Source: Phoronis australis
Taxonomy: Eukaryota > Animalia > Phoronida
Length of the DNA stretch: 64,000 bases
NCBI GenBank assembly: GCA_002633005.1
Contig: NMRA01000140.1
Span: 558,001-622,000 of the forward strand
Reading direction: 5' to 3'
Positions 28,679-64,000 of the stretch are shown piece by piece (position 1 is the first letter of the stretch; each line of letters begins with the position of its first letter). A program made the translations under genes and the position numbers. The notes under the pieces were generated by a model. The model was not told where the DNA came from and ran no database searches. It was given only the letters and a program-made list of their open reading frames with translations.

Positions 28679-30538
28679 TACAAAACAATGTTTAGGTAGG
28701 TAACCACTTCTTGTAACAGGTGTTCAATGCCACAGTAATTCAATGGTGAAAAACTCCACACAAAAATTTAACAGGGTTTTCTGTAGATAAGCTTACGGGC
28801 ACATAAACGGAAAATGAAAAATTTTGAAAATTTTCACGCATTCCACTGATACAAAATAAACGCCTGGGTGTTTAGTCGAAGGGGGGGGGGGCGTGTAAAC
28901 GGAAAGTCATAGCCTCGGCTAATATGAAAATACCAGCCATTTTTGTGCAAAAAACTGTTTTTTAATTTTAAGTTAATATTAAATACATACTTCACCAACA
29001 CTTTGTTCGTTTATATAAATGATAAATACTCACAAAACTGAATTTGTGGCTAAAAGTTGATGCTAAGTGGCTTTTAAGAGGACATTTTCCACTATCTGGA
29101 CACTTGACAACAGAAGTTGCAAATAAATGCCCATGGGCATAATTTCCCAAATAAACGCGCACGGTCGTACCATTGGGTGGGCTTATCTACGCAAAATCCC
29201 CGTACATACAATCAGAGAGTAAGCTTTGTGACTTAGAGGAGCATGAAACAAGTCCAACAAGTAAACGAATTTTAGAGTTAGTAAAACAAACGCGATAAAA
29301 ATAATATGCAGGTCCATTACAGGATACATTAACCTACATTCTATTTCACACAAAAATTATTGTCAAAATATCAACTTTTACATAACATAGACCGCTAACG
29401 CTCCAATTTTTATTCCATAAATTTTTATTTTACGATAAATGCATAGTGTAAGCCATGTTGATAAGAAAAACATTTTTTTCACAACACTAACTTCTGTTGA
29501 GAAACTTGACACATTAAAATTTCACCAATACAACACTCTTGTGTGACAAACTGCAAAGCATTTATCATCGCATAAAACAAAATCAGGTGTTATACACATT
29601 AAGTATGAGCAATTAAAAAAAATTGAGACCTAGACATGCAATTTGGTATGCAAGCATTGTGTGTTATATATTGATGAAGCCGCACATACCAATGGGAGGT
29701 CACTCATAGAGTAGACAATAACACCCTGGTATTGCGTAGTGCCCTCAGTGATACGGCCCAAGCCCGACTTCATGACGTGGTGGCCATAGAGGAATTGTTG
29801 CTCAGCACTCGGCTTCAACCATACTTTATACTGAAAAAAATGAGCCATGTGGTCACATAGTTTCACACGTTACGTCACATTCACACACTTGTTCAATAGA
29901 GGAGTAATAGTTTTAACTTAAATTCACGTCAAAGTCCCAAGATGCAGGTAAGAAATGATGATGAACACGATTACTTTTTCATAATGAATTTCAGAAAATT
30001 TTCAAAGTTATGATTATTATAAATAAGTATGATTAATTTTATTCATATTAGAGCACAATACGGTGAAACATAATATCTGAACAACAAAATTTTCAATTAA
30101 CAGACGACTTTACTTAATTATTTGAACACTTTATACAGTGCCGCTATCATTAACAAACATGAATTTAGAACATTTTTGGCAATATAGTGAGCACTTCAAC
30201 ATGAAAAAGGAAAAATAGTTTTGCTCATTACTTTTGTTCAAATCATATGAAATTTTACTGTAAAGTCTATCGCTGCAATGGCATCACTGGCAAGCAAAAG
30301 TGGAAAACCAATAGCAAAGTCACGTTTCTCTACCTTGGCGTAAGGACTTAAGAAATCTAGAGCTGTGATGTGTAGACGGAACTTCCCAGATTTTGTGAAC
30401 TTTCCAAAACATGTTCCGAAGCTGAGGAGATTTTCACGTGACACATGGCAGGCTTTCTTCATCAAGTCCTCACTGAAAAGAAACGAGCAAACTGTTAATT
30501 TCAATAAGTACCGTGTTTTTCAAACATTCCTTGATGGC
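28679..30538 (+). repeat. Copy 1 of ~1.8 kb near-identical segment, ending exactly at the gap
   Basis: Collinear with 31496-33155 apart from substitutions and indels. Confidence 0.95.
28771..29204. mobile_element. Old MITE with imperfect terminal inverted repeats
   Basis: acagggttttctgtagataagc (left) versus gcttatctacgcaaaatccccgta (right); the right end is deleted in the second copy of the duplicated segment. Confidence 0.5.
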
Positions 30539-31495
30539 NNNNNNNNNNNNNNNNNNNNNNNNNNNNNNNNNNNNNNNNNNNNNNNNNNNNNNNNNNNNNN
30601 NNNNNNNNNNNNNNNNNNNNNNNNNNNNNNNNNNNNNNNNNNNNNNNNNNNNNNNNNNNNNNNNNNNNNNNNNNNNNNNNNNNNNNNNNNNNNNNNNNNN
30701 NNNNNNNNNNNNNNNNNNNNNNNNNNNNNNNNNNNNNNNNNNNNNNNNNNNNNNNNNNNNNNNNNNNNNNNNNNNNNNNNNNNNNNNNNNNNNNNNNNNN
30801 NNNNNNNNNNNNNNNNNNNNNNNNNNNNNNNNNNNNNNNNNNNNNNNNNNNNNNNNNNNNNNNNNNNNNNNNNNNNNNNNNNNNNNNNNNNNNNNNNNNN
30901 NNNNNNNNNNNNNNNNNNNNNNNNNNNNNNNNNNNNNNNNNNNNNNNNNNNNNNNNNNNNNNNNNNNNNNNNNNNNNNNNNNNNNNNNNNNNNNNNNNNN
31001 NNNNNNNNNNNNNNNNNNNNNNNNNNNNNNNNNNNNNNNNNNNNNNNNNNNNNNNNNNNNNNNNNNNNNNNNNNNNNNNNNNNNNNNNNNNNNNNNNNNN
31101 NNNNNNNNNNNNNNNNNNNNNNNNNNNNNNNNNNNNNNNNNNNNNNNNNNNNNNNNNNNNNNNNNNNNNNNNNNNNNNNNNNNNNNNNNNNNNNNNNNNN
31201 NNNNNNNNNNNNNNNNNNNNNNNNNNNNNNNNNNNNNNNNNNNNNNNNNNNNNNNNNNNNNNNNNNNNNNNNNNNNNNNNNNNNNNNNNNNNNNNNNNNN
31301 NNNNNNNNNNNNNNNNNNNNNNNNNNNNNNNNNNNNNNNNNNNNNNNNNNNNNNNNNNNNNNNNNNNNNNNNNNNNNNNNNNNNNNNNNNNNNNNNNNNN
31401 NNNNNNNNNNNNNNNNNNNNNNNNNNNNNNNNNNNNNNNNNNNNNNNNNNNNNNNNNNNNNNNNNNNNNNNNNNNNNNNNNNNNNNNNNNNNNNN
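30539..31495. other. Assembly gap (957 N)
   Basis: Run of n. Confidence 1.
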
Positions 31496-33155
31496 TACAA
31501 AACAATGTTTAGGTAGGTAACCACTTCTTGTAACAGGTGTTCAATGCCACAGTAATTCAATGGTGAAAAACTCCACACAAAAATTTAACAGGGTTTTCTG
31601 TAGATAAGCTTACGGGCACATATACGGAAAATGAAAAATTTTGAAAATTTTCACGCATTCCACTGATACAAAATAAACGCCTGGGTGTTTAGTCGAAGGG
31701 GGGGGGGCGTGTAAACGGAAAGTCATAGCCTCGGCTGATATGAAAATACCAGCCATTTTTGTGCTAAAACCTCTGTTTTTTAATTTTAAGTTAATAAATA
31801 CATACTGCACCAACACTTTGTTCGTTTATATAAATGATAAATGCTCACAAAACTGAATTTGTGGCTAAAAGTTGATGCTAAGTGGGCTTTTATGAGGACA
31901 TTTCCGAATACAGGCTACATTCTATTTCACACAAAAATTATTGTCAAAATATCAACTTTTCCATAACACAGACCGCTAATGCTCCAATTTTTATTCCATA
32001 AATTTATATTTTACGATAAATGCATAGTGTAAGCCATGTTGATAAGAAAAACAAATTTTTCACAACACTAACTTTTGTTGAGAAACTTGGCGTACTAAAA
32101 TTTCGCCCATACAACACTCTTGTGTGATAAACTGCAAGCATTTATCATACTCATTGCATAAAATAAAATAAAATCAGGCGTAACAATACCTTATACACAT
32201 TAAGTATGAGCAATTCAAAACAAAAAAAACCTGAGACCTAGACATGCAATTTGGTATGCAAGCATTGTGTGTTTTATATTGATGAAGCCGCACATACCAA
32301 TGGAAGGTCACTCATAGAGTAGACAATAACACCCTGGTATTGCGTAGTGCCCTCAGTGATACGGCCCAAGCCAGACTTCATGACGTGGTGGCCATAGAGG
32401 AATTGTTGCTCAGCACTCGGCTTCAACCACACTTTATACTGGAAAAAATGAGCATTGTGGTCACATAGTTTCACATGTTACGTCACATTCACACACTTCT
32501 TCAATAGACGAACAATAGCTTAACTTAAATTCACGTCAAAGTCCCAAGATGCAGGTAAGAAATGATGATGGAACACGATTACTTTTTCATAATGAATTTC
32601 AGAAAATTTTCAAAGTTAAGATTATTATAAATAAGTATGATAAATTTTACTCATATTAGAGCACAATACGGTGAAACATAAAATCTGAACAACACAATTT
32701 TCAAACTGACGACTTTACTTAATTATTTGAAAACTTTATGCAGTGCCGCTGTCATTAACAAACACGAATTTAGAACATTTTTGGCAATATAGCAAGCACT
32801 TCAACATGAAAAAGGAAAAATACAGTTTTGCTCATTACTTTTGTTCAAATTATATGAAATTTTACTGTAAAGTCTATCACTGCAATGGCATCACTGGCAA
32901 GCAAAAGTGGAAAACCAATAGCAAACAAAGATAAGCCACGTTTCTCTACCTTGGCGTAAGGACTTAAGAAATCTAGAGCTGTGATGTGTAGACGGAACTT
33001 CCCTGATTTTGTGAACTTTCCAAAACATGTTCCGAAGCTCAGGAGATTTTCACGTGACACGTGGCAGGCTTTCTTCATCAAGTCCTCACTAAAAAGAAAC
33101 GAGCAAACTGTTAATTTCAATAACTACCGTGTTTTTCAAAACATTCCTTGATGGC
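31496..33155 (+). repeat. Copy 2 of the duplicated segment, starting exactly at the gap
   Basis: Begins tacaaaacaatgtttaggtagg as at 28679 and matches through ...cattccttgatggc; lacks ~230 bp present in copy 1. Confidence 0.95.
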
Positions 33156-39028: not shown

Positions 39029-40820
39029 CAGTCTAATTCTGTCAAACGAGTAGGCTGTTCTGAATTTCCAAGAACGTCCTCCGGTGAGTTTTTTTACCTT
39101 GTAGTGAGCTTGATTATTGACCCTCGTTCTGAATATGATAAAGTTAAAGATCAAGGGCTGACTACTTTTAATGGTTCATATAGAGGGACGAGAGTTAAAG
39201 CAGGCTTGTAACTGGGTTGGGTAAAACCAATTGCTGATGATGTTGATAATGTAGTAGTGCAATCTACACTGGCAGGTGTCAATGCTATGTCCGAGAATGC
39301 TGATTCTTCGTCTGCCAGTCCCGATTCCTCTCAAGGGGGTAGTGCGGGGTTGTCAGCCGATGAGGATGGTTCCACCACTTTACCTCCAAAGCTGCTGTCA
39401 CTTATTGAAAACCTAAGACAGGCTTGTCTTCTAATGAGGCGTCAGTTCTTGAGAATCTCTTGTTAAGAGTATCAGGATGTGTTTGTGGCTGACGATTTAG
39501 ATCTGGGGAACTTTACAGCACTCGAACATGTCGTCGTCACCAGCTCTGAACTTCCTATCAAAAAACAGCTACGAGGCAAACTCGTTTGTCTGTTTTGATT
39601 CGTAAGTCCGATGGTTCGGTGAGTAACTGTATTGACTACAGTGCTCTCAATAAATTACTAAAAGGATGCGTGGCCCCTTCCCTTGATTGATGAGTGTATC
39701 GACCTTCCATCTACTCCCTACCGTCCCTCATCTGTTCAGGTGGCAAAAATTAATCGTATAGTGATGGATGCTGTGTGTTGTTGCATTTCCAATAGTCAGG
39801 ATGACTGGGATCCTTTTCTTGACGCAGATTGCATGTGCTATTATAAGGACTTCAGTTAATAGGCAGACAGGTTTCACTCCCAACATGGTTCTGCTGGGCC
39901 GTGAGATTAATCATCCGTTTACTCTCATGTACCCAGTGGCACGAGGGCAGGACCCTGTTTCCCCTACTGATTTTGTTGAAACGCTTCAAAAGAGAATTTC
40001 TAGTGCGCATGAAGTGGCCAGGAAGACCCTAGTCATTACGTAAGCCCATATGAACCGCGATTACGACCTTGGGGTACATCGTCGTGACGTTGTATATATC
40101 ATTGACATCCCGGTCATTAAAGGCAAATGTAAGAAACTAAGTCCACCTTGGAAAAGTCCTGGCATTGTTATTGATGATCTTACACCCTTTCTTTTCAGGA
40201 TCTGACTTGAGAATCCTGTTTCTACGGTTAATCATTACCGTTTAAAGATTTGTAATGATAAATTGGAAATGTTGCCTAATTGGATGTTAGCTGTGGGTAA
40301 TCCTACCAGTCCCCTTCTTGTTGTTAACGACCTGTACTGTATATGTCGCCACCCGGATGACAGAGGGTTCATGATCCAATGTGATTCGTGCGATGAATGG
40401 TATCATGGTAGCTGTGTCGGAATCAACAGTGAGGTGGCGGTAACCATCGAGAAATATTATTGCCCTCGGTGCAAGCCCACTAGTCGGTCTTATTTATCAT
40501 GATTACTTGTTTTTATTTATAGGTTCTCTTGTCAAGATGTACAGCTAAAAGAAAACCCCGATCTGCCAGTCTTCAAGGGCGATGCTAATGCCCCCCGTCA
40601 GGTAACAGTTGAAGCGGCCGTCGCCGTCGTGCCAGTATCCCAGGGAGGGTATGCCGGTGCCGGCGCCATCTTTAGGTAGTGTACCATTGACTTCTGTGGA
40701 AAGAGAAGGTCCAGTACCTCAGGAACCCTTCCGCATCCTTCTCTTCAGAGGCAAACCTGGACGATTCCATTTTGAATGATCCCCCGTCATCCGACCCTGT
40801 GGCTACAGAGTCTCGACCCT
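39029..40820 (+). mobile_element. Gypsy copy A (decayed): post-protease region, RT N-terminal fragment, integrase C-terminus, PHD finger, start of ORF3
   Basis: EYQDVF...DLGNF, CIDY.ALN, KDAWPLPLIDECID (~39662-39703); TGFTPNMVLLGREI; KLSPPWKSPG; YCICRHPDDRGFMIQCDSCDEWYHGSCV...YYCPRC; FSCQDVQLKENPDLP is homologous to the start of the 47434 ORF. Confidence 0.88.
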
Positions 40821-40871
40821 TGGACAAGGGTGAGTAGCACCGTCGAACCAATAGCCACAATCTACAACATT

Positions 40872-40885
40872 TGGGGTAGTTGCAG
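40872..40885 (+). other. Degenerate primer-binding site, tRNA-Ser-like
   Basis: TGGGGTAGTTGCAG lies two nt after the LTR end and resembles the tRNA-Ser complement TGGCGTAGTCGGCAG. Confidence 0.55.
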
Positions 40886-41157
40886 TCACTGCTTGTGGTG
40901 CTTTCCCCTTGTTTACTTTCACCAGAGGCGTGAAATTTAAAGTTCATAAAGTTAAGTTTCCGTCCTGGTACTACCCCATGGAGGGTGGTAACTGTTTCAG
41001 TTTTTCTTTAGGTGTTTTTGTACGGATGTACATATTTCCTTGTACATATTATCATTTTCTAGTTTCATTATTGTTTTTTTCCAGAAAGTTAATTATATAA
41101 TTTAGTATTTTTCAGTAATTGTCTTAATTCCTCAGTGCCTTTTGAGCACCAATCACC

Positions 41158-42270
41158 ATGGCATCTAAGATCCTAATCAATTCTTGTGATGCTACAACAC
41201 TGTTAGACCTTCCAGGCATGACTACTGATGTTGCTGCTGCAGTTATTGACTTCAGGGCAGTGTCAGCGATTACACTGGAGAATGTTACTAAGATACATTC
41301 CTCTTGGAAGCCGACCAAAATGATGCATAAACACATCGACTTCTCCATCCCATCTGGTCTGCCGGAAGATTTGGCTAAAGTTGCAGAGTTGGTCGACAAT
41401 TATGGTAAGGAAACACCATCGAAAATGGTTTCAGTTCCTGTTTCTTTTCCAAAATTGGCAACTAAATTTACCCCATCCAAGACCAATATTGCTACTGGTG
41501 GTGCTTAAAAAAAGACAACCTCATCTCCACATACTAGCATGTCATTTAAGCCGTCGGGGTCTTCAGCTAATTACCTACAACATGCTCCACGCAACCTAAC
41601 TTTCAGTGGTAAGCTAGGCACCTGGGAAGATTTTTTCTGGAAGTTTGAAAATGTTGCCAAAGATAACTGTTGGCCTAGCCAAAAGTGCCGTACTGAATTA
41701 GGTATGTGCTTAGAAGGAGATGCTTCTCGTTGGTTCGCAAACCGTATCAGAGCTTTAACAGATGCATCTTACAAACAGATCATCAAAGGTATGATATATC
41801 GCTTTGGTGCAGAAATCGAGTGTAACGAAGCACACCAGCTTAGATTTCAGTCAGCCAAACGAACTCCTGATGAGTCACTTGAGCAATGAGCTGACCGCTT
41901 AAACAGTTTATTTTTATTAGCTTTTCCAGATGCTAGGGACACTGACAAAGATCAGGCTGTCCTTCGTTTCTGCTTGGGTTTGAAGGACAGAGATGTTGCT
42001 CAATGGACAATAAATAGTAAACCGGAATCAGCCATGGAGGCTTTGAATGCCACACGATGGTTTTCAACCACCAAAGACCTTATGACACAGTCGAGACCAA
42101 CCAAGACCGTTTCTTTCTGTAGGGAAACCTTTTCAGAGGAAGAGGAGGAAGAAGTTTCGGTTCGTCAGTTAAGTAAGAAGCCCACTCTTAAGTTCATTCC
42201 TCGTGGCACTTTAGAGTCTCGTTAAGATGTCCTTGAGGGTAAGTGCAATGATTTGGATACATCGGTTTCA
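41158..42270 (+). pseudogene. gag of copy B with N-terminal helix-hairpin-helix-like segment and capsid-like region
   Basis: ORFs 41158, 41539 and 41974 are one frame broken by in-frame stops; TFSGK..WEDF..KFE..A....W.......LGMCLEGDA..WF and ESLEQ*ADRL..L...AFP are Gypsy gag-like motifs. Confidence 0.85.
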
Positions 42271-42307
42271 TTAGAACAAGTAGGGAACAAGGCATGGTCG
42301 GTCTCCC

Positions 42308-42830
42308 ATGATTCGTTTTCATGCTGGAGCACCGATGGAGCGAATACATATCAATTTTCTTGGTCCACTACCCTTATCTCCGCGTGGCAATCAACATTTG
42401 TTGATGATAGTTGATCAATTTGCTAAGTGGGTGGAATGTATTCCCCTACCTTCTCAAACTGCCGAAGTTAAAGCTACCGCAGCAGTAAATGATTTTTTCG
42501 TGCATTTTGGTTATCCTTTCCAAATTTTCTCTGATCAAGGGAGAAATTTCGAAAGCAATTTATTCCGTTCTGAGAGTGAGCTTTTGCACATCCATAAGGC
42601 ATGTGCAACTCCGTATAGACCCTCTGCAAATGGTCAAGTTGAGCGTTACAATAGAACCCTTATGGATGCTGTAAGATGCTACGTGAATAACTTTCAGACG
42701 GATTGGGATCTATACATTCCTCAAATGGCTAGCGTGATTCATTCGACATACAGTTTTAACACCGAATATGATGATGTTGGGTCATGAGGTCACTCAGCCA
42801 GTAGATCTCATGGTTCCTCTACCGTCCGGT
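42308..42830 (+). pseudogene. Integrase catalytic core fragment of copy B
   Basis: GAPMERIHINFLGPLP (first catalytic D>N), FSDQGRNFES, TPYRPSANGQVERYNRTL. Confidence 0.92.
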
Positions 42831-43212
42831 GTCTTATTTATCGAGGCTGTTAGTCCACTAACTGTCATTTAGGTAGGGAGGGTGGAGTAGTTATATTTTT
42901 TTTAGTTTTCTTTTTCACATTCACTCCTCATTAGTTTTTTTTCAATGAGTTTGTTAAGTCAATTTTAGGGAGGAAAGGAGTAGGTACTTGTTGTTGTGTC
43001 TTAATGTCGTCTGTCCTTGTTCGTCTGAGTGTTTATGGTGAACCGGATGTAGTTCATAGTTTATATCACGTGAATGGGGAAATGCTGGACCTGCTCGTGT
43101 CGTCCTTCCTGAGTGAAGGACGTGTATTCAGTGCCTATTTTAGTGTAAAGACAAGTCAAGAAATGGACATGGGTGAGTAGCACCGTCGAACCAATAGCCA
43201 CTAATTACAACA

Positions 43213-43400
43213 GTACCCATGGAGGTGGGAGATGAGGAGACACCCCAAAAAAACAAAAAAAAAATCTTCAAAAGGGGGTCCAGTAAAGTCTTCCACATGC
43301 CCTAAGGCTGGTCCAGACACTTTTTCTGCTCCTCCACAACAAAGCGACGTCTTTTCTTGCCCTCTTTGTGGTTTCCACGTTCCTGAAGACCACAGTGGTA
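43213..43400 (+). pseudogene. Continuation of copy A ORF3 after the copy B insertion
   Basis: SDVFSCPLCGFHVPED aligns with TDQYQCPLCPFTVSLGED of the intact ORF3, in the expected order after EANLDDSILNDPP (~40750-40785), which aligns with ESDIDESVLDDDP. Confidence 0.6.
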
Positions 43401-43500
43401 AGTGCGGGGCACACAACATACATTTAGATTGTAATTAATACTGTGGCGCCTCTATGTTTTTCTAAAATAGACTCCAATCTAGAGAAAATGCTGGGTTTAT

Positions 43501-43680
43501 TAGCCTCGGGCCGGACTCCCGTCCAGATCACCCGGTAATTCTCCACGAAGAGCCGGAGAGTGTTTCAATTGTGGGGAGACTGGTCATTTTAAATATTCGT
43601 GCCCCAATAAACCATCGGCCAATGTCACATTACCCTCAACGTCTCCAGATTGTTTAAACTGGAACGGACTGAAGGACTAG
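43501..43680 (+). pseudogene. gag C-terminus of copy C with CCHC zinc knuckle
   Basis: GECFNCGETGHFKYSCP (C-x2-C-x4-H-x4-C from 43561); stop TAG at 43678-43680. Confidence 0.88.
43653..43659 (+). other. -1 programmed ribosomal frameshift heptamer T TTA AAC (gag to pol)
   Basis: Heptamer is in the correct gag phase and the -1 frame is the protease ORF; a potential stem GG.CTGA...TCAG.CC follows. Confidence 0.8.
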
Positions 43681-46600
43681 ATTCCCAATCAGGCCTGCCC
43701 AAAGACTATTCAACTCTGATTGGTTTGGTGGGAGGGATCAAAAAGCAATTAAAACGTGCAAAAAAATCTAAGAAAACGATTCATTCCACTGGTGTGGAGA
43801 CTGATTCTGAAGATTCTTTCTCAGTAGCAGATTCCGACAGTGATTCTAATCCAGGTTCTCTTGCTAGTAAGGATACGTTGACTGTAGATCCACCTATCAA
43901 GTCAAATCTAGATCGAGCGACTCTGGACGTAGTACGGACCGACTCTGATTCAATAAAATCGTCGCCGGAGATAGTAAACATATGTAAACTATCTTCAGGT
44001 CGTACATATTATATTCCCATAGAGTTGAAGGGTTTGAGGATAAATAGTATCCTGGATAGTGGTGCCGACAGTACTGTAATTTCTACCAGGGTATCTAAAT
44101 TTCTCTCGGGTGTCCAAGCCGTGCACGATGTAAAGGTGACAACGGCCGCAGAAGGTCTGGCTCTTGGGGGGTTCAGGACCAATGACATTCCCATTATTAT
44201 TAATTCCAAAACATATCGAACCTCAGTGGTAGTTTCAGATATTCAGGACAATTGCCTCTTGGGGTTAGATATCATGAAACAATTGAGATGTGTTCTGAAC
44301 ATGAAAGAGGATAAACTGATTATTGAGGGGAAAACATTTCCAATGGAATACGGTATCCCATCCAGACATCTTCCTCCCGTGGTAGTGAACTCAAATGTTT
44401 TAATTCCTGCCAATACGGTGAAGAGGTTAAGTGGGATTGAATTTCCAAAGATTTCCCCCATGGTTATGTTTGATCCGTCTCAATCTTTAGATCCACTTAT
44501 TTCGATCCCCCGCTCAATACATGACCCCCAATCCTGTTCTTCCCTTTTTGTTTTCAATTCATCGGAACATGGGGTAAGATTAACAGGAGGGACTATCTTA
44601 GGTGTAGTGGAACCCGTGGAATCTGAAGGGGTAAAGGATACTCAGGTTTGGGAACAGTGCTCAGTTAAGGTAGCTAAGGCAAAGGAAACTCCTGGGGGTG
44701 TTGAGACACTGTCGGGGAGATTACCAGGGCGAACTCCTGGGAATGTTAATGCGCTGTCGGGAGATTTACCAGAAAAGCGTTCTTGCTCGTTTTCGGGAGT
44801 TTGGCCTGAGATTGAAACCCAGAAAGTGTGCCCTGTTCCAATAGAAAGTAAAATTTCAGGGTAGGACGGTGGGTCCGGAAGGGTTGGAGATGGGAAATGA
44901 CAACATTAAGAAAGTCCAAGAATGGCCTTTTCCCCACAGTAAGAAACAGTGTAAAAGTTTCTTGAGTTTCGCAAATTACCATAGGCTATTCATCAAAGAT
45001 TTTGCAAAATTAGCTGTACCTCTTTATGAGATTACAGGGTCGAAGAAAACCTTTCAGTGGGACGATGCACAACAGAATTCTTTCGATCAATTAAAGGTAG
45101 CTCTAACATCACCACCTGTTTTAGCCTTACCTAACAAAAATGACAAATTTATTCTTGATTATGACACCTCTGATAAGGCTATTGGCTGTTGTCTTTCCCA
45201 AGTTTAGAACAGGGTGGAGCGAGTTATCTCGTAGTCCAGCTTCGCTTTAGTGGACGAACAAAACCGTTATTGTACTACTCGAAAGGAGCTGTTGGCTGTT
45301 GTACGATTTACACACCAGTTCAGACATTACCTCTTGGGCAGGAAACTTAAAGTACGGACAGATCACAGTAGTTTGAGATGGCTGTTAAACTTTAAATCTC
45401 CTTCGGGACAATTAGTTCGTTAGATATTACAGTTACAGCAGTTTTCGGGTATGGATATAATATACCGTCCACGAGTTAAACATATCAATGCTGATGCTCT
45501 GTCACGTATTCCTTCATCCTCCTGCCCCGCTTACAAGCTAGGGGTAGAACTCAAAGACCTTCCTTGTGGCAGTTGTCCCACTTGCTGCAAATCTCATGAG
45601 GAATGGTATAATTTCGTACAGGAAGTTGACGACACTATTCCTCTTGCACAACGCCCCCGGGCAGCTAAGGTTGACAAAAGTACCAGTACCCGTGCGCGAT
45701 CTGTATATGTGTCTGATGCGTACAAAGACTCTCTGTTGGATAGTCAAAACGTCCCAGAAGAGTTTATCCCTGACAACTTAGGAGAGGAGGGGTTGGCATT
45801 AACTATACGTAATCTCGAGTTGACGGATGTCCCTTGTATGGATGACTGTTTTCTAATCTCCATAGCTAGGGATGATCGAAACCCTTGTTTTGCGAGAGCA
45901 TTGTTGATAGAGGACGAAACAGACTTTGACCGCAAGTAGAGGGAGGACACAAATCTGACTGTCATATTTGACTGGTTAGATAATGGTGTTGAACCTTTAC
46001 AATTCCGCTTATTTATCTCCAGCGCTACGGCCAAAAATTATTGGCTTAATAGGGAGCGGTTTGTTGTGTCGAATAATCTATTATATTGGAAGGCTCCAGA
46101 TGAGGAAGATACTCTAAAATTAGTAGTGCCCGAGTCCTGCAAGTCAGATATTATAAAGCATTGTCATGACTTACCCTCCGCATGTCACTAGGGAATTGAC
46201 CGTACCAAAGCGAAGTTGAAAGATAAGTATTATTGGCGTGGTATGGCCGCGAGTGTAAAATCTTATATTGAAACACGTGCTGGCTGTAATTTAAATAAGC
46301 AAGGTAGAGGTAAGTTTCCCTTAACTACATTCCATGCAGGGGTGCCCATGGAACGCGTCCATTTAGATTTCCTGGGTCCACTCCCTGTATCAGATCAGAG
46401 CAACGAATATATCCTCATGATGGTAGACCAGTTCGTCAAGTGGGTGGAATGTGTAGCCCTCCCGTCGCAGACGGCAGAGGTCACGGCGAACGCTGCAGTG
46501 GACCAGTTCTTTAGTAGATTTGGGTTCCCATTGCAGGTGTTTACCAATCAGGGATGAAATTTTGAAAGTCATTTGTTCTGTCATATTTGTTCCCTTTTAA

Positions 46601-47411
46601 AAATCCAGAAAACAAGAACGACTGCGTATGGGCCTTCTTCTAGCGGACAATGTGAGCGATTCAATCGTACCCTGATGGATGCAATAGTTGTTATGTCATT
46701 CGTTTCCAAACTGATTGGGATAGGTATTTACCCCAAATTGCGGGTGCTATCCGGTCTTGTGTTAATCGTCATACTGGCTTTACAGCTAATAAAATGATGC
46801 TGGGTCGGGAAATAATTCAGCCAGTAGACCTCATGTATCCACCGCCCTTACAGGATGCTGAGGACCCCATAGGGTATGTAAACCGGCTCAGTAAAGCGAT
46901 TACTCAAACTCACGAGATAGCTAGAGGAACATTGCAGACTACCCAAGCTGTTATGAAACGCGATTATGATGCGTCTATGGTCAAACGTTCATATAGTGTT
47001 GGAGATTTAGTCTATGTCCTTGATTCAGCTAGCGTTAAGGGGAAGTGTAAAAAACTATTACCCCCTTGGAAAGGGCCAGCCATTGTTCTCGAGGTCATTA
47101 CTCCCTATCTATTTCGAATTAGACACGGGAATTTTGTGTCGGTAGTCAATCATGACCGTTTGAAACTCTGTAAAGATAGGTTTCAAGACCTACCTATCTA
47201 GCTTAAGAGAATGATCCAGGTAAATTCCACAGTGAACCAGGATAGTCTAGCAGAAGACACCGAAGTATACTGTTTTTGTAGGAGACCTGATCATGGCGGG
47301 TTCATGATTGCTTGTGACGTATGTGATGAGTGGTATCATGGGGAATGTGTAAGCATTACCACTGATGACGCACTGCACACTGACCGGTACATCTGTCCTA
47401 GTTGTGAATAA
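43653..47411 (+). pseudogene. pol of copy C: aspartic protease, RT with core deleted, RNase H, integrase, PHD finger
   Basis: ILDSGADSTVIS (~44055); RT resumes only at VLARFREFGLRLKPRKC (~44780); RNase H YCTTRKELLAVV, VRTDHSSL, NADALSR; integrase HLDFLGPLP, QCERFNRTL, WKGP; PHD 47268-47408. In-frame stops at 44842, 45205, 45232, 45421, 45937, 46189, 46555 and 47199, plus a frameshift near 46690. Confidence 0.93.
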
Positions 47412-47433
47412 CATTGGCTTTGCAATATTTCAG

Positions 47434-49491
47434 ATGTTTCGATGTACAGATGTGAGGTTAAAGACTAATCCGGACTTACCTTGCATTACCGACGTCCCAA
47501 GTGAGCGGGAGGACTCTACGCAGCCACCGCCTCAACCAAGGGAGGAAGATCAATCCCCGGTGCAAGAGGTGTCCGTGATAGCAGCAAATACGGGGGAATC
47601 AGACATCGACGAGTCTGTCTTAGACGACGACCCGGTCGTAATGGTCTCACCCCCACGGCCTATTAATGTAAATGTGCCCCTGTCAACCCCCGCAGATTTT
47701 CTGACCAGTCCTTCGTCCCCTATGATGGTAGATTCTGCGGTAGTGTCAACAGGTTCCGCAACTACGCCGCTGGCTTCGCTTGGTGAGTCTATTTGGGCCC
47801 TTCCCGAATACTCCCAAGGAGTGCAGATGGCAGAAGCCTTGTTGCAACCCACTGATCAATATCAGTGTCCCCTGTGCCCCTTTACCGTTTCTCTCGGTGA
47901 AGATGAACTGTTGTGTAAACATATTTTCACATGTCATCTGCCACCCTTGTTTTCCACTAACCAGGCTGACGTGGTTGCCAGCCCTCAGCTTCATCGAGAG
48001 AGATACGACTCGTTAGCCTATCTTTTTTCATTGCTGGAGGGACGTAGCATGAAAGACTCGCTAGATCTTGTAGACAGGTGTAACCTGGTATGCCGAGGCT
48101 TGAGCCAGCTGCCACGGGTACTCCCCCTGGATCAAATGGCGATGTCCGTAATGTCTACTACATTTGGCTGGGACAGGGTGCCGAGTTTCACGTTAACACC
48201 TAGACTCAACTCGCCAGCCGCCTGCTTCCACTGGTATGTGATCACTCTTCTGCTCCAAAAATTACCAGAGAGTGACCGTGCCCGATGGTTTGTCAGTGCA
48301 CATAATGTGAGGCTCCCTCAGTCCTTCTTGGACTCCTCGTCCGGAGAGGTCGGGCCAACGTCCTTTATAACCCCCAGGCCTCAGACTTCTACTTCAGCCC
48401 CTTCACCCCCTAAACGACCACGGACGTATGCCCAGGTTGCTTCCTGTCCTGAGGCTCAGTCTGCACCGCTCCCTCCTGTACCATCCAAATCCCCAGTGGA
48501 GCGTAAACAGGATCGTCCAAAGCGGTCGGCGCCGGCAACCACCACCTCGGCGAAACGATCCGCTAAACTACCATCCTTGTACGGTCCACAGTCGACCGCT
48601 AATCTGCAGCCTGCTGCATCCGCCCCAAAGCCAGAGGCAGTCGATTCGCATTTCCACCTAGATCGGCTGACCTTCGCGTGCCAACGGTTTTCCCCCGAAT
48701 TGGCCGGCCGGCTACTTACCATCCCTGAGATCACGAATATGACGGCCATGCTCCCTTGCCCCTCAAAAAATCCCGTCCATTTAACAGGGGGCATAGCGGT
48801 ATTTTGTGATCCGATCCACTATAAGTTTGTGGAAAAATCTACTGAGGCGTTCCCTTCGGGTTGGAAGGCTGCCATAGGCATCCATCCGAAAAACGCCAAG
48901 TCGTACAATCCGGCCATGGAGAAGGAGATTTTCAGGCTCCTCCGGTTGCCCAACGTTGTTGCACTAGGTGAGTTGGGATTAGAAGAAGGCCACGGTAGCG
49001 CTGAAGTACAGCAGCGAGTAGTTGTGTCGCTGGTGCGCGGTCTTGCCCGCTTCCAGACGGTTCACGGCTCTCGTGTGCTTGTATTGCACCTTCGCGCCCG
49101 GGAGTCCACTTCGCCCTTTCACTCTGGTCATCAGTACATGAGACGGTTGCTGAGTGACGTCTTGCCCAGAGCCCAACCAATCCACCTCCATTGTTTTTCT
49201 AGTAATCCCCAGGAGGTGCGATCATGGATGAAGGCTTTCCCAAATGCCTATTTCGGCTTTGCTGCCACTGCTCGTCACTTTTCCTCTCCCCAAGCTAAAG
49301 CTTTGGCAGCCGTGCCCCTTAATCGGCTTCTTTTGGAGACCGATTCCCCCCATTTAGCGACGTCCTCTCGACCTATGGCCCCATATTTCATTGGGGAAGT
49401 GGCCTGGAAAATAGCACGCCTGCGTCACTGTAATGCTGACTATTTGTTGGAGCAAGCGGCCAAGAACGCACGTGTTTTATACCGACTGTAA
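47434..49491 (+). CDS. Retrotransposon ORF3: C2H2-like zinc finger, Pro/Ser-rich linker and TatD-family metal-dependent nuclease (685 aa from ATG 47434)
   Basis: TatD motifs VDSHFHL, IGIHP, ALGELGL, VLHLR, HLHCFS, YFGF and LLLETDSP in correct order (48634-49491); CPLC-x14-H-x4-H at 47866-47937; no introns, no stops; ATG directly follows a tttcag acceptor-like site. Confidence 0.92.
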   Translation: MFRCTDVRLKTNPDLPCITDVPSEREDSTQPPPQPREEDQSPVQEVSVIAANTGESDIDESVLDDDPVVMVSPPRPINVNVPLSTPADFLTSPSSPMMVDSAVVSTGSATTPLASLGESIWALPEYSQGVQMAEALLQPTDQYQCPLCPFTVSLGEDELLCKHIFTCHLPPLFSTNQADVVASPQLHRERYDSLAYLFSLLEGRSMKDSLDLVDRCNLVCRGLSQLPRVLPLDQMAMSVMSTTFGWDRVPSFTLTPRLNSPAACFHWYVITLLLQKLPESDRARWFVSAHNVRLPQSFLDSSSGEVGPTSFITPRPQTSTSAPSPPKRPRTYAQVASCPEAQSAPLPPVPSKSPVERKQDRPKRSAPATTTSAKRSAKLPSLYGPQSTANLQPAASAPKPEAVDSHFHLDRLTFACQRFSPELAGRLLTIPEITNMTAMLPCPSKNPVHLTGGIAVFCDPIHYKFVEKSTEAFPSGWKAAIGIHPKNAKSYNPAMEKEIFRLLRLPNVVALGELGLEEGHGSAEVQQRVVVSLVRGLARFQTVHGSRVLVLHLRARESTSPFHSGHQYMRRLLSDVLPRAQPIHLHCFSSNPQEVRSWMKAFPNAYFGFAATARHFSSPQAKALAAVPLNRLLLETDSPHLATSSRPMAPYFIGEVAWKIARLRHCNADYLLEQAAKNARVLYRL

Positions 49492-49817
49492 GTCCGGAGA
49501 GGGTCTCTAGTGAGTATTTCTACCACTAGGTGTCTGCTCTCCCGTCCATGGGGGATGGGTGGTTCCCCATAAGGGTGACTATTTATTATTTATTTCATGT
49601 GTTCAAGGGTGCTGGCTCTTTGAACTTCTATATTATTTGATGGTACTTCTGTTCTTAACCCATGTGTATTATGCTCTCATTCTAGGGGAACTGTCCTTGT
49701 GCTACTAACACCCTGAATTTTCTTCTTTTTTGGAGGGGGGAGGAGGATCAAAAATTTTCGGGCATTTTTTGATAAATTGGCAATGATGTTGTTTCCCGGG
49801 TGGGTCCCACGCTTTTT

Positions 49818-49831
49818 AGGGAGGAGGGGAA
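49818..49831 (+). other. Polypurine tract of copy C
   Basis: tttt-AGGGAGGAGGGGAA immediately before TGTTGTAAT. Confidence 0.8.
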
Positions 49832-50074
49832 TGTTGTAATCGGCAACATCATTGGCCCTTTGTTTTTCCTGTGGCGTCTTGTGATTGGTCTGTTTTTGTG
49901 TGTTCCCCCGTATGTCTCTTATATAAGTCGTTGGCGCCACTGTCGGACGGGTTTTTTCAAGAACCGGCAAAACGAGTCATCCATGGTTGCTCCACTTGGC
50001 GTCAACTGACTGGCTTATATCTTCATAAAAGTAAGTACTCTTGTGCCTAACTAGTGAACTGTAGGAATACAACA
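49832..50074 (+). mobile_element. 3' LTR of copy C with CCAAT and TATA boxes
   Basis: Begins TGTTGTA; ATTGG at 49851 and 49884; TATATAAG at 49920-49927; a TACAACA inverse end at 50068-50074. The end is uncertain because the last ~28 nt recur at 50315-50347. Confidence 0.65.
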
Positions 50075-50399
50075 CTACTTTAGTTTTTGACAATATTGAA
50101 CAAGACAACTAGTTCTTGTCTGTCAATCATCTAAGTTCTTAACAGGTCCTCCTGGAGGCAATTTGTTTGCAAGTATTGGATTTTATATTTTAACTTATTA
50201 AAAGTAATTAAAAAATTATGGGTCATGGGTTGGAGAAATAAATGAAATATATGGGCGGTGGGTACGAAATAAAAGTGCCTTCCCCCCTCCCATACAGATT
50301 TTGCTGGAACAGCCCTAACTAAGTAGTGAACCTGTAGGAATACAACAGGCCGAACCTGTTTGGCCGTGTCGGCAGTAGCCGACAAATAATACTATAATA

Positions 50400-57845: not shown

Positions 57846-58162
57846 TTAATGTGGAGAAGGCATACACTTCAATCGCTCAAATGTTGCCTTTTCTAAATAC
57901 TCTCTGTGGTCAGGATGAGCTATTTTGATAAGTTCGTACGCTCGTTGTCTCAGATTCTTGCCAAAGAGGTATGCAATACCATATTCTGTTACAATGTAGT
58001 GCACATGAGCTCTTGTTGTGACAACACCGCCCCCCTCTTTGATGTACGGCACAATCTTGGTGTCGCCATTCTTCGTCGTGGAAGGCATGGCAAGGATGGG
58101 CTTTCCTAACCCGTCTGAGCTTTGAGCTGCACCGCGTAGGAAATCCACTTGACCTCCGACCC
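57846..58162 (-). CDS. Family I CoA-transferase / acetyl-CoA hydrolase, last exon
   Basis: GVGGQVDFLRGA...VVTTRAHVHYIVTEYGIAYLFGKNLRQRAYELIKIAHPDHRE; ttcttag| acceptor, TAA stop. Confidence 0.95.
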
Positions 58163-59142
58163 CTAAGAATACAAACAATGCTGACTGATGCTCCAATTGA
58201 AAAGTGATGGAAATAATTCATGAAAAATTAGTATGCAAATTGTCCATGAAGACCTTATCCAAAACAAAGATTGTACTCCCTGAAATAATACTCACTGAAA
58301 TAATTATCAATGTTTAGTAACTTTCTGATAGCGATAGCTTGAACTACAGATTAAATACACAAAATCATAGAAGACTTAACCAGAAATTTAAATAATACAA
58401 AATTGTCCCAAAAATTGAAATGAGATGCATTGTTCAGCTCAAGTACTGTATAATGTTAAACCGTCATCAGCGAAAAAGTTTTGCCTGCAACAAATGCCAT
58501 GTGTAACAATTACTAGGTTCAAATATGTCAAAATTACTTGCAACTTTATATTTCTTCACAAGGTTATGATATTGCTAAATGTTAGTCATCTCATGACATG
58601 ATGCAAGAGTTCAAGTTTGAATGCGTTTTTGCACAAAATACACAGAACACGTGTATCAATCCTGTGCAAAAATTTGTTTAAGCTTTTCTTGATGTCTCCC
58701 AGCTATGAAACCAAAAAAGAAGCCTTCCTGACTGCATTCTTCAGCGTACCGTTACTTGAAAGTCTCACAATTACACTCCTGTGGAGGCACTGAGCACTCA
58801 AGATTCTCATCAACCAACTTTGAACTCTATGGCTGTAGACAGTTTACTAACAAACTTAAGGTGACACATTATATCTTTCAGTTCGTGGCCCCTTTTAATC
58901 AAATGTCATACACATGGTCTTAGCTAAGACAGTCATATCTTGAATTTTTATTGGTAGACAAACCATTAACATGGTTTAAAGAAGTTGAACCTGAATGTGA
59001 GCAGCAATCACGCCGACACAGTAACAAGTTTAGCTCTTTCAAAAACTGTAACTTCGCTTTCGCAATAGAGCAGTACGTGTGATTGTCTTTTCAAGACAAG
59101 CGGACGTATGACCTTTGATAGACCAGGCCCATGAACACTGAC

Positions 59143-59280
59143 CTGAGTAGAGCCTGGTGCCGATGGAGTCAGACACAACCTGACCCGTAAGGTCAACCTC
59201 GATACAGGAGTTGATGGCAGTTACCTTGGGGTTCTGCATTATGATGGGAATACTGTTGACAAAGCCTATGTCATTCATCA
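59143..59280 (-). CDS. CoA-transferase exon
   Basis: NPKVTAINSCIEVDLTGQVVSDSIGTRLYSG; tttcag| and |gtcagt, phase 1-1. Confidence 0.95.
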
Positions 59281-60125
59281 CTGAAACAACAAGATTAAGA
59301 CTCACTACATTGTAATACAGTGAGCAACATTGCGTAACAGTCCATTCATCAAGCTGTAATCAATGCAAGACAACAACAATCTTCTTAAAAATAAAAATAA
59401 TCAACAAAGGTGCTGAGAAAGTCCTAAATCAACTGCTGCCAGTGACTCCACTATAACAGCTTGCGTAATTTTTCTCCAAGTTCTGTTATAAGGCCTGTGA
59501 AATAACAAGCAGACGAGCCAAAATGACAACAGAAAGATGGGAAGACAACTACGCAGGTGCGCCTACAAATTTTTTGTGAGTGCACAATAAATGTAAACAA
59601 AACTCCACATAAGATTTTCTTTACTTAGTTTGAAACGGACAAAAACATGATGGGAAAGTAGTTAGAAAATCATTTACTATAAAGTATAGCAGCATCACGA
59701 ACCAAAAACAGAAAATCAATCAAGGAATAACATGACATATGCCTATTAAGCTGAATCATTCATTTTTTACGCTAATATCAAGTCTGTTTTTAATGATGTT
59801 TTTAGCTTTATTTCTCAAAAAACAGACAGTATACAGTAAAATTTCCAAAAGCCGGATCCAACTAGACCAAGAGACTTTGTCCAAAGAAAGGCAAAATTAG
59901 ACTTGTTGTATAAAGGGTTCAGCACAAGAAATAAACACAACCTTGCTTGCCTACATTGAGCCAAGATTCGACTTTCGTCATCCAGACTTATGCTAGGCTT
60001 ACTGTTACTGCAATAACTTTTCTCAATTACAAAACTTAACGTGACTTGTTATAACGACGACTGTTTTAGAAAAACTTAGTACGAATAAAGAGTGCTTTCG
60101 CGAGGACCTCACACAAATACCTTAC

Positions 60126-60262
60126 CAATGAATGGATTGTTATCCATAAAGTCGTAAAGTTTCTTGGTTCCAACCGCAAATCCACCAACAATCTTGCCTG
60201 TGTGGATGGTCTTCTTAGCGTTGGTGATGACCCCTTTGTCCACCAAGTCAATAATCCCATCG
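60126..60262 (-). CDS. CoA-transferase exon
   Basis: DGIIDLVDKGVITNAKKTIHTGKIVGGFAVGTKKLYDFMDNNPFI; acacag| and |gtaag, phase 2-1. Confidence 0.93.
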
Positions 60263-61059
60263 CTGTGTAGTGATAGTGAATACGTACAGTCACAAAAATA
60301 CGTTATGTATGAGCTGTTATTAACGTCTCATTATTGACTTGATATTTTGAGTACTACTATTAAAATTACTGATCAAATTTTAATACGCTATATATATATA
60401 TCATGCATTTAATTTTAAATATTTTATATACTACGGTGTACTTCCATGACAAACCCACTGGAGCTCCCCCTAGGTGCAGTGAGCTGTGACTAGCTACTGA
60501 TAGCACTGAGGCCATCTCTTTACAGTCAGTCTTTTAAGAGTTAGCTAGCTGAATCAGGTCACTGAGTCTTGGACATTTCAAGGTAACAATTAGTGTCACC
60601 AGGCAATGCACGAGCTTGCTATTTCACTTACACTAATTGGCCATTGTGTTAGTTAATGCATACATACAATGTTTTGTCACTCCAATGACAGGATATTAAG
60701 CAATTTAAAACAAGAGCAACACAAAGCTGTGAAATGCACCCATGGTAACAAAAACCTATTTCCTTAATTTCATGAAAATCCAGCACGAAAATCCAAAGAT
60801 ACAGAGGCAAACAAAAAGTCATAAACATTATTGCCACTAGGAGACACGAGCAGCGATAGCTGGAGCTTCAGGAAAAAAGTCGTCACCTGTAGTTAAGTTT
60901 ATAGAAATACAATTGCCAAAATTGTCAAAGATGCTGTAAAGGTTTAAAGAGAGACAGCCGTAGATACAAAAAACAAAATTACAACCAGAGAGTGCCATTG
61001 CATTTGGGTTGATTTGAAAATCAACATTAGATGTGATCATCTCAACAGGAACACATCTT

Positions 61060-61840
61060 CATATTTCCATATACCGAGAGGATCGACAGATACAGGGGAA
61101 GACACCCAAAAAACAAGACTCGTAAATATTAAAAATGGCCCCTAGAAGTCGAAAAACATGTTGAACCAGTCCCAAAATAAAAATGCATAGTTGTCTCCTT
61201 AAAAAAATCCAAGTGCCAAATTTAATGAAAATCTAACAAGGAGCTCCAAAAATACAGACTGGCAAACATTACGAAAAAAATTGCCAATAGGGGATCCATC
61301 CAAAACACATCGTCATCTGTCATCAGCTTTATATAAACTAAAGACCTAACAAAGGGTTCAGGAGATACGGTTACGGATGCAAACAAAACAAAATTGCATT
61401 AGAGGGTGCCACAGTAGTTGGACCCGTCTGAAAATCATCAATTTTCAAAACGATTGTACAAGCATTTAAGCAGATAGAGAGGAGGGCGTCAAAAAATTTG
61501 AAAAGAATAAAAATAGCCACTAGGGGGTGCAGTCCCTGCTGAATCTGTTTGAAATTGGGAAGGTGTCGTTAACATTTCAATAAAAATGCTCCTGTCGAAT
61601 TTCGTGAAAATGTATCAAGGAGTTAAGCAGATATACAGACAAACTTAAAAAAACTAAAAGTTGTCACTAGGGGGCACATCAGTTGTAATGTCCATCTGAA
61701 AATTGCCCAGTTTCATAGGTAGCACATGCCAAATTTCATAAAGATCCTCCAAGCCGTTTAGGAGATACAGCAGTAGAGGCCAAATGCTCGGACACTGATG
61801 ACGGCACTATGAACCCCCATATGTACGTGGTCTCATAAAA
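61060..61840. repeat. Intronic interspersed repeat built of degenerate tandem subunits
   Basis: Recurrent ccaaattt.at.aa.atc...aagg...ggagatac/gcagata and cactagggg motifs; related to 9190-9420 and possibly ~15250-15500. Boundaries are approximate. Confidence 0.55.
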
Positions 61841-62242
61841 ACTGGATCCCAAGTCAAGTAACTGTGCTCAATACATCATGAATTTTGTACAGACATACAA
61901 CACAGCTTCAGAAGATTGCAAATGATAACATGTGTCACTATTCGGCTTTACTTGTAAGAATCAAATTTTAATAGGACTGTTGTTACCCCAATGGCAAAAA
62001 CATACCAATCATATAAAAGCAAAGCATTTTTAAATTAGCAATACCGCATAGCAATACAGACAAGAAATGTAACAATTACCAAAAAAGCTACAGTTTGGCA
62101 TGTATGGTAAAAGAGGATGATGTTTAATCTAAAATGCATTAAACCTGTAAGATGTGGTAACTATTGTGACGTAAACACATTAGTGGTTTGTGCTGTTCCC
62201 CAAGTTGGGTGATACTCAGTCAGAGTTAGCACAGCGTGTTAC

Positions 62243-62321
62243 CTAAACATCTCCGAGTGAATGCCCAGGTCTCTGTGGCTCCAAAGACTGGCAAGGACAG
62301 TGTCTGGGATGGTACCAATAC
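62243..62321 (-). CDS. CoA-transferase exon carrying the catalytic Glu motif
   Basis: GIGTIPDTVLASLWSHRDLGIHSEMFS; tgccag| and |gtaac, phase 1-2. Confidence 0.93.
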
Positions 62322-62850
62322 CTGGCAAAAAGAAGACTCAAGTCAGCACATATCACTTCAACACAGACACATTTATGAGAACAACAAAACCCTAAAGTTT
62401 GTTAAATTTAAAATCGTTTCTAAGGCATCTTTATGTCATGCTTTCAATTATCATTTAATAGACTCAAATGTAAATGCACCTAAAATCAAATAAAACTGGC
62501 CAGTTAATACTAAACATTTGACATACAATATTTTGTTTCAGTGACAGTACGAAAGCTATTTCATATCAACACAATCTCATTTTTTAATGGGCGTAATGTG
62601 ACAAAAGCCATTTTATGGATTATTCCAGTGTTGTTTTCTGGGCAAGTCAGTTTGGACCACCCAACCATAATGTTTTGAAACGACAATCAGTTGAAATCTG
62701 CTGTGTCCCCAGATGGTGACAGAGTGAAGTGTGCTATCTACTTTAATTGCGAACATGGCTATTACCAACGCCATGGAGACAACCATTTACTACAAGGTTG
62801 CAGAGTGCTATGAGCACCTTTATTCAAGATGTGAGGCACTTAACACTCAC

Positions 62851-63039
62851 CCATCTGTAAGGTAGAGCCATCTTGCACGAGATTGGTGGCAATTATTCGC
62901 CCAATCTGTTCCTCGACTTCCGTGGCTGGCGGTAGGTGGAGCTCCGGCAGAGGTATATCCCCTTCCACCAGGGCGTCTATATGGGACACGTGCAGGTTTC
63001 CATCACCAAACGTTCGCGGGCAGTTGGGGTTGACTTGAG
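62851..63039 (-). CDS. CoA-transferase exon
   Basis: AQVNPNCPRTFGDG...IGRIIATNLVQDGSTLQMG; gtttag| and |gtgagt, phase 1-1. Confidence 0.95.
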
Positions 63040-63540
63040 CTAAACGCGAAACAAGAGTCTTCTTACACACAGGTGAACTTTCTAAGCAACATATTTTACA
63101 ATATCAGTTATTCTTTAGTTTTGCAGACATGTGGCTAAATACACCAACAAGTCAATAACGCCCTCCACAATCTTAACTGACAAAAGCAATGACATGTAAA
63201 TACAGTTAGGCAGGTGTAAACATCTGAAATTTCATAGCCTAGAAAGCTACATGGGGATATACAGCACACATCACAAATTTGTGTTAGAAATTGGTCGACG
63301 ACCGGTTGTCGACTCATTGCCGACCAGTCGAACAAAAATTCAAAATGTGAGCTGTAGTATCAATTTAAAGTTAAGGCCAAACATAGATGGCTGAGTTGTG
63401 TATATATCCATGTTAGCATTTCAAAGACTGTTTATGACACAGGCTGTGGGCATCTGACTCTGAATGCAAAAACACTGCTACGCCATCTGTTGGCAATAGG
63501 GTCGAATGAGTCAACTATGACACAACTCAAACAAACCCAC

Positions 63541-63780: not shown

Positions 63781-64000
63781 CTGTAAAAAGAAGACACCAT
63801 ATGAGTAAGGCAAATACTGGTGGAAGAGCTCCGGAATGGCTCAAAACTTTCAAAAAATTTCCAAATACGTATGTCAGTTCAATAATCTACTCATGGACAG
63901 AATTGGGACTGGATACAACACCTGAAATGTGAATGTCTACAGACTTGGTCTTTCACCAGAAACAACCTGTACCATAATTGCATAATAACACTTTCATAAG

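Follow-up and report, generated by a model that had tools for sequence, protein, structure and literature searches.

In a 64,000-nucleotide stretch of the Phoronis australis genome (contig NMRA01000140.1, positions 558,001 to 622,000 of the forward strand; hereafter the window), a Gypsy retrotransposon that we call copy B carries a third open reading frame (ORF3) between its integrase and its 3′ long terminal repeat (LTR), and this frame encodes a TatD nuclease domain. We are highly confident that TatD is an element-borne lineage trait, an old third gene of a Gypsy clade. The explanation we favor as a whole, with more confidence than doubt, is that copy B is a dead copy from a clade in which TatD is fixed, and that ORF3 of this clade would be made from a spliced message as a free nuclease degrading RNA:DNA hybrids.

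The open frame at 47353–49491 comprises 712 codons from stop to stop and follows the integrase and its PHD finger. It matches Pfam TatD_DNase over profile positions 1–252 of 253 (E = 8e-29), and its TatD model is a barrel (predicted local distance difference test, pLDDT, 92.6) whose top PDB matches are TatD proteins only; the best solved structures are bacterial TatDs, with no TATDN2 structure among the matches. The metal ligands of a Group II TatD (HxH plus E, H, H, D) are in place at H406, H408, E513, H552, H586 and D637, as is E635, and none of the 23 loci of the family described below has lost any of the six ligands. A preliminary description of this DNA had placed a zinc finger and a full TatD domain with its ligands in a third ORF between the integrase and the polypurine tract/3′ LTR, and had proposed a TatD_DNase profile search; reading frame, profile match, model and ligands agree in bearing it out. 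Judged from its sequence, the domain is likely to be an active nuclease. TatD is the sole Pfam domain in ORF3, and Pfam finds neither an env protein nor a DEDDy exonuclease or GDSL esterase there.

Upstream of the TatD domain, zinc-finger-like residues (C145, C148, H163 and H168) are kept across the family and have no Pfam match. They belong to a zinc-finger/helical middle domain with a confident fold prediction (pLDDT 81.9), for which searches of Pfam, ESM Atlas, the PDB with Foldseek, BFVD and VIA-align returned nothing (best VIA-align Z 3.8), a result that is not proof of a new fold. ORF3 of copy B lacks a ∼100-residue N-terminal domain present in 75 of 99 long family proteins, and no upstream exon encoding it was found in the six frames of the whole window.

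Copy B shows the Ty3/Gypsy order of gag, protease, reverse transcriptase (RT), RNase H and integrase, which is complete in its relatives. Its 5′ LTR is missing, as is the greater part of gag; a deletion has removed ∼230 residues of RT, including the catalytic motif; and its pol contains frame breaks and seven stops, one of them at 45937 and the others listed in the table. Relatives have a primer site, polypurine tract and LTR; copy B keeps the tract and one LTR-like end and has no primer site. It is a dead, decayed fragment, unable to transpose. The decay and the missing 5′ LTR had been overlooked in the earlier account of a Gypsy element at 43440..50074.

The putative 3′ LTR (49832–50074) is 243 nt long, begins TGTTGTA and ends TACAACA. 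No partner for it exists in the window, and the LTR proposed earlier from 49832 onward is to that extent unpaired. The spans from tract to primer site in four relatives are 245, 254, 332 and 340 nt, and contig depth in DNA run X4 rises to 92 at the LTR-like end, compared to 9–49 in other bins. These lengths and this depth, alongside the tract and the terminal sequences, make the LTR call well supported, though without a pair. A very high-copy repeat (50075–50324) follows the LTR end, and a second occurrence of the final 23 nt of the LTR, at ∼50325–50347, resembles a target duplication.

Copy B is one of many such elements. A search of cluster representatives returned 102 proteins at E ≤ 1e-30 and 890 at 1e-10, the latter of which will include ordinary TatDs. 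Members occur in bivalves (Mya, Dreissena, Pinctada, Saccostrea, Crassostrea, Mytilus, Pecten, Argopecten, Ruditapes) and sea urchins (Diadema, Lytechinus, Strongylocentrotus), mostly under the public names uncharacterised, tatD or TATDN2. One cluster from Mya arenaria holds 13 proteins that are 96–100% identical on records of 11 different lengths; near-identical copies on many records fit a mobile gene. Strong matches also came from three prokaryote genome bins (2 of 301 in one search, 3 of 380 in another), and we take the Gypsy contigs in these bins to be misbinned animal DNA. The bins (G182, G208 and G329) contain many animal retrotransposon contigs, with 122 integrase matches in G182 alone. 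Some family proteins are publicly filed as bacterial TatD, and two Mytilus gene models named tatD (P0182, P0220) combine a retroviral protease and the family TatD in one protein and probably span pol and ORF3. Scans of metagenome, genome and viral contigs with patterns from the TatD alignment gave only prokaryote-type TatD, 22–33% identical, among the matches listed, and an integrase pattern scan of viral contigs gave no match.

To describe genomic context, we used all 23 TatD loci with E < 1e-40. Integrase or its PHD lies upstream on the same strand in 16 of them. At another locus (L182) an RT fragment directly precedes ORF3; this element is internally deleted, yet tract, LTR and primer site are kept. 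In four of the 23, the contig begins inside the ORF or within 131 nt of its start, and in two carrying a second TatD type (L199, L202) the 402 and 922 nt upstream have no pol match. Seven loci (L185, L188, L189, L195, L197, L198, L200) combine gag, an open Pol of 1425–1924 codons and ORF3, and L192 is a permuted form of such a gag-pol-ORF3 element, so that several complete relatives carry TatD, as the preliminary description would require.

For comparison, we examined 60 further integrase-bearing contigs, mostly picked for long open frames among 144 matches. Across the 71 loci scored, TatD is present in 11 of 11 Pol frames ending in PHD and in 1 of 60 others. Absence is not established throughout the latter group: of the 55 TatD-free rows in the tree below, only 16 have at least 1.5 kb of downstream sequence. 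A point that weighs against a general reading of these counts is that the context loci come from only three assemblies, 20 of the 23 from one. The TatD of L199–L202 is a second, divergent type, which may have split off early or been captured separately; in L200 it follows a Pol without PHD. Other Gypsy elements in the same bin (L250, L239, L209, L213, L238, L203) have third ORFs of different kinds, among them a baculovirus-F env (L250), a BTB/POZ protein (L239) and C2H2 zinc fingers.

We then compared the histories of Pol and TatD. In a Pol tree of 68 rows, for which stops in the window frame were coded as X, the window groups with the 11 PHD elements on a single branch (Shimodaira–Hasegawa-like approximate likelihood ratio test, SH-aLRT, 100), and L200 falls in a neighbouring lineage. 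In a TatD tree of 101 rows, made by a quick method and unrooted, the window lies inside a 43-row element branch (support 98), 27 TATDN2 orthologues, including some from the same bivalve and urchin genera, form a separate branch (99), and 26 bacterial proteins form a third. For 13 elements, 8 of 10 splits are common to the trees of Pol and TatD, compared to 0.4 for shuffles (maximum 5 in 5000), and Pol and TatD distances are correlated (Mantel rho 0.70, P = 0.0002). The congruence check suggested earlier thus came out in favor of joint descent, and the view of ORF3 as an old part of the family, not a neighbouring host gene, is upheld by context (16 of 23), congruence and trees alike.

Two proteins initially considered element-type (P0218, P0221) fell with TATDN2 in the tree and were counted as host genes. 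In profile comparisons, TATDN2 scores 155–199 bits, bacterial TatDs 91–136 and TATDN1/3, which were compared by profile score outside the tree, 53–54. The family TatD and TATDN2 also share a VFC-P motif and a longer first insert. By these sequence comparisons, TATDN2 is the host family nearest to the element TatD. Most simply, a TATDN2-like gene was captured long ago, although an unrooted tree gives no proof of direction. The ratio of nonsynonymous to synonymous substitution (dN/dS) over the TatD domain is 0.13 in two close pairs of element copies; the domain is under purifying selection between copies. Its fixation throughout a deep Pol clade, together with purifying selection, makes it probable that TatD serves some function for the element.

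How might ORF3 be expressed? Downstream of the pol stop, 13 of 14 loci have a pyrimidine-rich acceptor and then an ATG, and so does the window. The sequence GTRAG occurs within the last 70 nt of three of four primer-site-marked LTRs and of all three window LTR ends, compared to 179 of 2215 background windows (8%). The proposed splice would link a donor close to the 5′ LTR end with the acceptor that follows pol. We also mapped three RNA runs (X5, X6 and X7; 18–19% of each) whose species label matches that of the best DNA run. In X7, depth in the usual sense orientation is 0–2.2 across pol and 0.5 in the last bin ahead of the acceptor, then 5.8–11.9 from bin 47398 to the LTR; X6 has a weaker version of this step, and X5 shows little. 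Since acceptor and ATG follow the pol stop in nearly all loci, ORF3 is likely made from a separate message, whose splicing is predicted. Several observations weigh against this. At 4 of these 13 loci, the frame that starts with the post-acceptor ATG stops short of the TatD domain. The control is also loose, since acceptors were sought over 425 nt, with a background of 33 in 306 windows (75 nt each). X5 and X6 have reads of both orientations across pol as well, many of them opposite to sense, no listed read in the three runs joins any donor to 47434, and at the nearest donor upstream (43173) X7 has a depth of 0.14. The first exon, or 5′ end, of the ORF3 message may belong to another locus.

Copy B offers a further question, namely whether ORF3 has outlived the element. 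Its pol has seven stops in 2565 nt and its ORF3 none in 2055 nt, where 5.6 would be expected (P = 0.004). Sequence variants are mainly silent in ORF3 (18 silent, 8 replacing) and mainly replacing in pol (1 and 11; Fisher P = 0.001; best 80 of 1237), with ten variants in the integrase piece of a neighbouring element, element C, excluded as not belonging to copy B. X4 contigs differ from the window by 2–7% in pol and by 1–2% in ORF3, and one has frame-breaking deletions of its own in integrase. Within the limits of the variant sample, then, copy B shows what is expected of a domesticated gene, an intact and apparently selected ORF in a dead element. If ORF3 has been kept under selection in this host after pol decayed, this would be an expected first sign of co-option. 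We think that selection on ORF3 of copy B after the death of pol probably did occur, with moderate confidence. Telling against it, the stop-count test was made after the fact, ORF3 having been noticed because it is open; the variants are the best-supported 40 of 660 and 40 of 577 from two overlapping lists; and those in ORF3 are mainly RNA-derived, those in pol mainly from DNA contigs. Furthermore, some X7 reads in ORF3 carry 9–11 other differences, which indicates that at least one diverged paralogue is transcribed, and an 1804-nt deletion variant without 46511–48314, found in DNA run X4 and RNA runs X5 and X6, joins integrase (46510) to mid-ORF3 (48315) and removes the ORF3 start.

The strongest alternative, which we rate only a little short of an even chance, is that copy B was not co-opted: its ORF3 would have been recombined in recently from, or kept by, a non-autonomous sub-family that other elements help to move, and whose copies would also supply the RNA. 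The diverged transcribed paralogues and the deletion variant agree with this, as does L182, an internally deleted relative that retains ORF3 and LTR, and no spliced read links the RNA to the copy B locus. However, many X7 and X6 reads have only 0–2 other differences from the window, and one X4 contig, at a depth of 10.7, spans 48982–49629; near-identical reads and this depth point to low copy number. The higher divergence of X4 contigs in pol than in ORF3, the integrase deletions of one such contig and the absence of a 5′ LTR from copy B also speak against this alternative. We doubt, on balance, that selection on ORF3 has served the host instead of a non-autonomous sub-family. We consider it rather unlikely that the fullest version holds, in which a TATDN2-related nuclease is a long-standing possession of an undescribed Gypsy clade found in bivalves, sea urchins and this host, and the gene of a dead copy has here been domesticated as an additional enzyme for R-loop clearing or transposon restriction.

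Published work is cited here by PubMed Central (PMC) number. For the role of the nuclease in the element, we tentatively prefer, by analogy, an RNase acting on hybrids and R-loops. With ORF3 translated from its own spliced message, the product would be a free protein. The basic PKRPR stretch of ORF3, which we take to resemble a localisation signal, would suit nuclear action; the zinc-finger/helical domain would aim the nuclease at hybrids; and the TatD domain would degrade their RNA strand, as does TATDN2, its nearest characterised relative. For the element, the benefit might be the removal of R-loops where its copies are transcribed in germ cells. Human TATDN2 breaks down the RNA within R-loops, favors RNA over DNA and depends on E593 and E705 (PMC10711561), which by motif correspond to E513 and E635 of ORF3. 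In medaka, tatdn2 shields primordial germ cells from R-loops (PMC12709183). Two points count against this analogy: other Group II TatDs are DNA exonucleases and apurinic/apyrimidinic (AP) endonucleases (PMC10085689), and ORF3 identity to TATDN2 is low.

Given those activities, known from TATDN1, TATDN3 and E. coli TatD, YjjV and YcfH (PMC10085689), ORF3 might instead be an element-borne DNA 3′–5′ exonuclease or AP endonuclease that trims ends of complementary DNA (cDNA), repairs integration gaps or removes aberrant cDNA, roles put forward in the preliminary description. All TatD ligands are retained, and the top solved-structure matches are bacterial TatDs. However, profile and motif both place the domain closest to TATDN2, which prefers RNA (PMC10711561), and ORF3 lies apart from Gag-Pol, so that packaging into particles is unexpected without an extra interaction. 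With an acceptor and ATG of its own outside Gag-Pol, in-particle roles such as cDNA end processing and proofreading are less likely, and we regard a DNA-directed role in general as unlikely.

Unlikely as well, in our estimate, is an anti-silencing RNase, in which the zinc-finger/helical domain would recruit the nuclease to small RNAs or their precursors and so counter silencing by PIWI-interacting RNAs. The middle domain is conserved and element-specific, zinc-finger or BTB ORF3s occur in other Gypsy elements of the same assembly, and a silencing role has been raised for the DEDDy ORF3s of rotifer elements (PMC5408684). Against this, the middle domain matched nothing in the databases searched. 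Finally, ORF3 could be a host sequence that lies in the element by chance, either retrocopied recently from TATDN2 or belonging to a gene next door. This would account for the public annotation of some members as TATDN2 or tatD and for TATDN2 being the nearest host family, yet we give it a negligible chance: tree placement, the approximately unbiased (AU) test, which rejects a single clade of window and TATDN2 (p-AU 0.005), and congruence with Pol rule it out, TatD has the same position at 16 other loci, and true TATDN2 orthologues of the same bivalve and sea-urchin genera sit on their own branch. Membership of ORF3 in the TATDN2 clade is rejected on the same tree and test, which disposes of the recent TATDN2 retrocopy named earlier as a possible refutation; TATDN1 and TATDN3 were compared by profile score only, where they fall far below TATDN2. 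With that limit, not one of the three refuting conditions in the preliminary description, the LTR in other copies included, was borne out.

Features of copy B and neighbouring decayed relatives, in window coordinates.
Feature	Position	Strand	Remarks
Copy A	39350..40820	+	decayed integrase-PHD, acceptor-like site, ORF3 start motif (40524–40568)
Element C	40821..43212	+	third decayed relative; LTR ends 40869 and 43212
Probable continuation of copy A ORF3 (zinc-finger piece)	43213..43435	+	weak match
Copy B gag 3′ remnant	43440..43610	+	CCHC knuckle (43561–43602); translation, self-BLAST, tblastn of intact relatives
Aspartic protease	44019..44297	+	Pfam RVP and Asp_protease
Last part of RT, and RNase H	44773..45500	+	stops 45205, 45232, 45421
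Integrase (H2C2 finger, core)	46100..47200	+	stops 46189, 46555, 47199; frame break near 46688
PHD finger, end of Pol	47271..47411	+	motif in translation
Splice-acceptor-like site, then ORF3 ATG	47414..47436	+	predicted
ORF3	47434..49491	+	unbroken; 685 codons from ATG 47434
Zinc-finger + helical domain	47866..48330	+	family-conserved, no database match
TatD nuclease domain, Group II (HxH)	48640..49488	+	all metal ligands kept
Polypurine tract	49818..49831	+	adjoins LTR-like end
3′ LTR	49832..50074	+	inferred from architecture; donor-like GTAAG at 50031

Two further decayed relatives lie just upstream of copy B. Copy A has a PHD corresponding to that of copy B (Pfam PHD, E = 8e-13), and its ORF3 start motif at 40524 matches in 11 of 15 residues (pairwise E = 2e-6). 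The earlier statement that the N-terminal parts of ORF3 recur in copy A holds for this motif; the zinc-finger piece in 43205–43435 matches weakly (8 of 15 residues, E = 0.001). Copy A was also said to end before any TatD domain, and indeed no second TatD domain was found in the window. Element C, with a primer-site-like sequence at its LTR end 40869, gag from 41154 and an integrase piece at 42284–42818, was probably inserted into ORF3 of copy A. The start of its gag (41154–41260) has a helix-hairpin-helix-like motif (Pfam HHH_3, E = 0.0017, below the cut-off), and similar gag starts are visible in L195, L196 and L200. RNA reads at 42367–42493 differ from the integrase piece in 7–11 places, mostly third codon positions, a divergence that points to a transcribed relative elsewhere. 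In the rest of the window, sequence of ∼2.6–2.8 kb is duplicated at 28679–33140 around an N gap (30539–31495) with 94–100% identity, perhaps an assembly artefact, and host exons for an anoctamin and an acetyl-CoA hydrolase/transferase, which mark the host as an animal, lie at 4969–5286 and 57849–63886 (minus strand).

The TatD clade provides a direct route to asking how a free nuclease benefits a retrotransposon, as in the handling of R-loops in germ cells, which require host TATDN2. The clade also accounts for dozens of multi-copy bivalve and sea-urchin gene models annotated as TATDN2-like or uncharacterised, and for some ‘bacterial’ TatD entries. If the signal in copy B is true, it represents co-option of a retrotransposon nuclease gene, one that is neither gag, pol nor env.

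We found no report of a TatD-bearing retrotransposon in the literature searched, which did not extend to subscription papers, supplements, Repbase, Dfam or GyDB. TatD is not mentioned in the main text of PMC5408684, PMC13524379 or PMC6238403, whose supplements could list such domains, and the accessory-domain list in PMC6338049 has no TatD in the part examined. Enzymes in the env position as such are already known from the Juno and Vesta elements of bdelloid rotifers, which are also Gypsy-type and carry a DEDDy exonuclease or a GDSL esterase with intact residues in a separate ORF3 (PMC5408684). The DEDDy fold of those elements differs from the TatD barrel here (PMC5408684). Rotifer DEDDy ORF3s were gained independently at least twice and show no clear departure from neutrality in the account given (PMC5408684), whereas TatD has become fixed in a single Pol clade, branches largely as Pol does (8 of 10 splits) and evolves at a dN/dS of 0.13.

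The env of errantiviruses is made from a spliced message, and ORF3 is likewise preceded by an acceptor-like site. Env-bearing errantiviruses also have their third ORF between integrase and 3′ LTR (PMC13524379). Unlike env, ORF3 is only TatD by Pfam, while the env-type third ORF of L250 (Baculo_F) was readily detected in the same data set. As in TATDN2, a Group II HxH TatD domain, absent in its HxH from TATDN1 (PMC10085689), ends a long protein, and its residues match the essential E593, E705 and D707 (PMC10711561). ORF3 is not an orthologue of TATDN2, and it differs in being intronless, multi-copy and located inside an element, and in having a zinc-finger/helical domain of its own.

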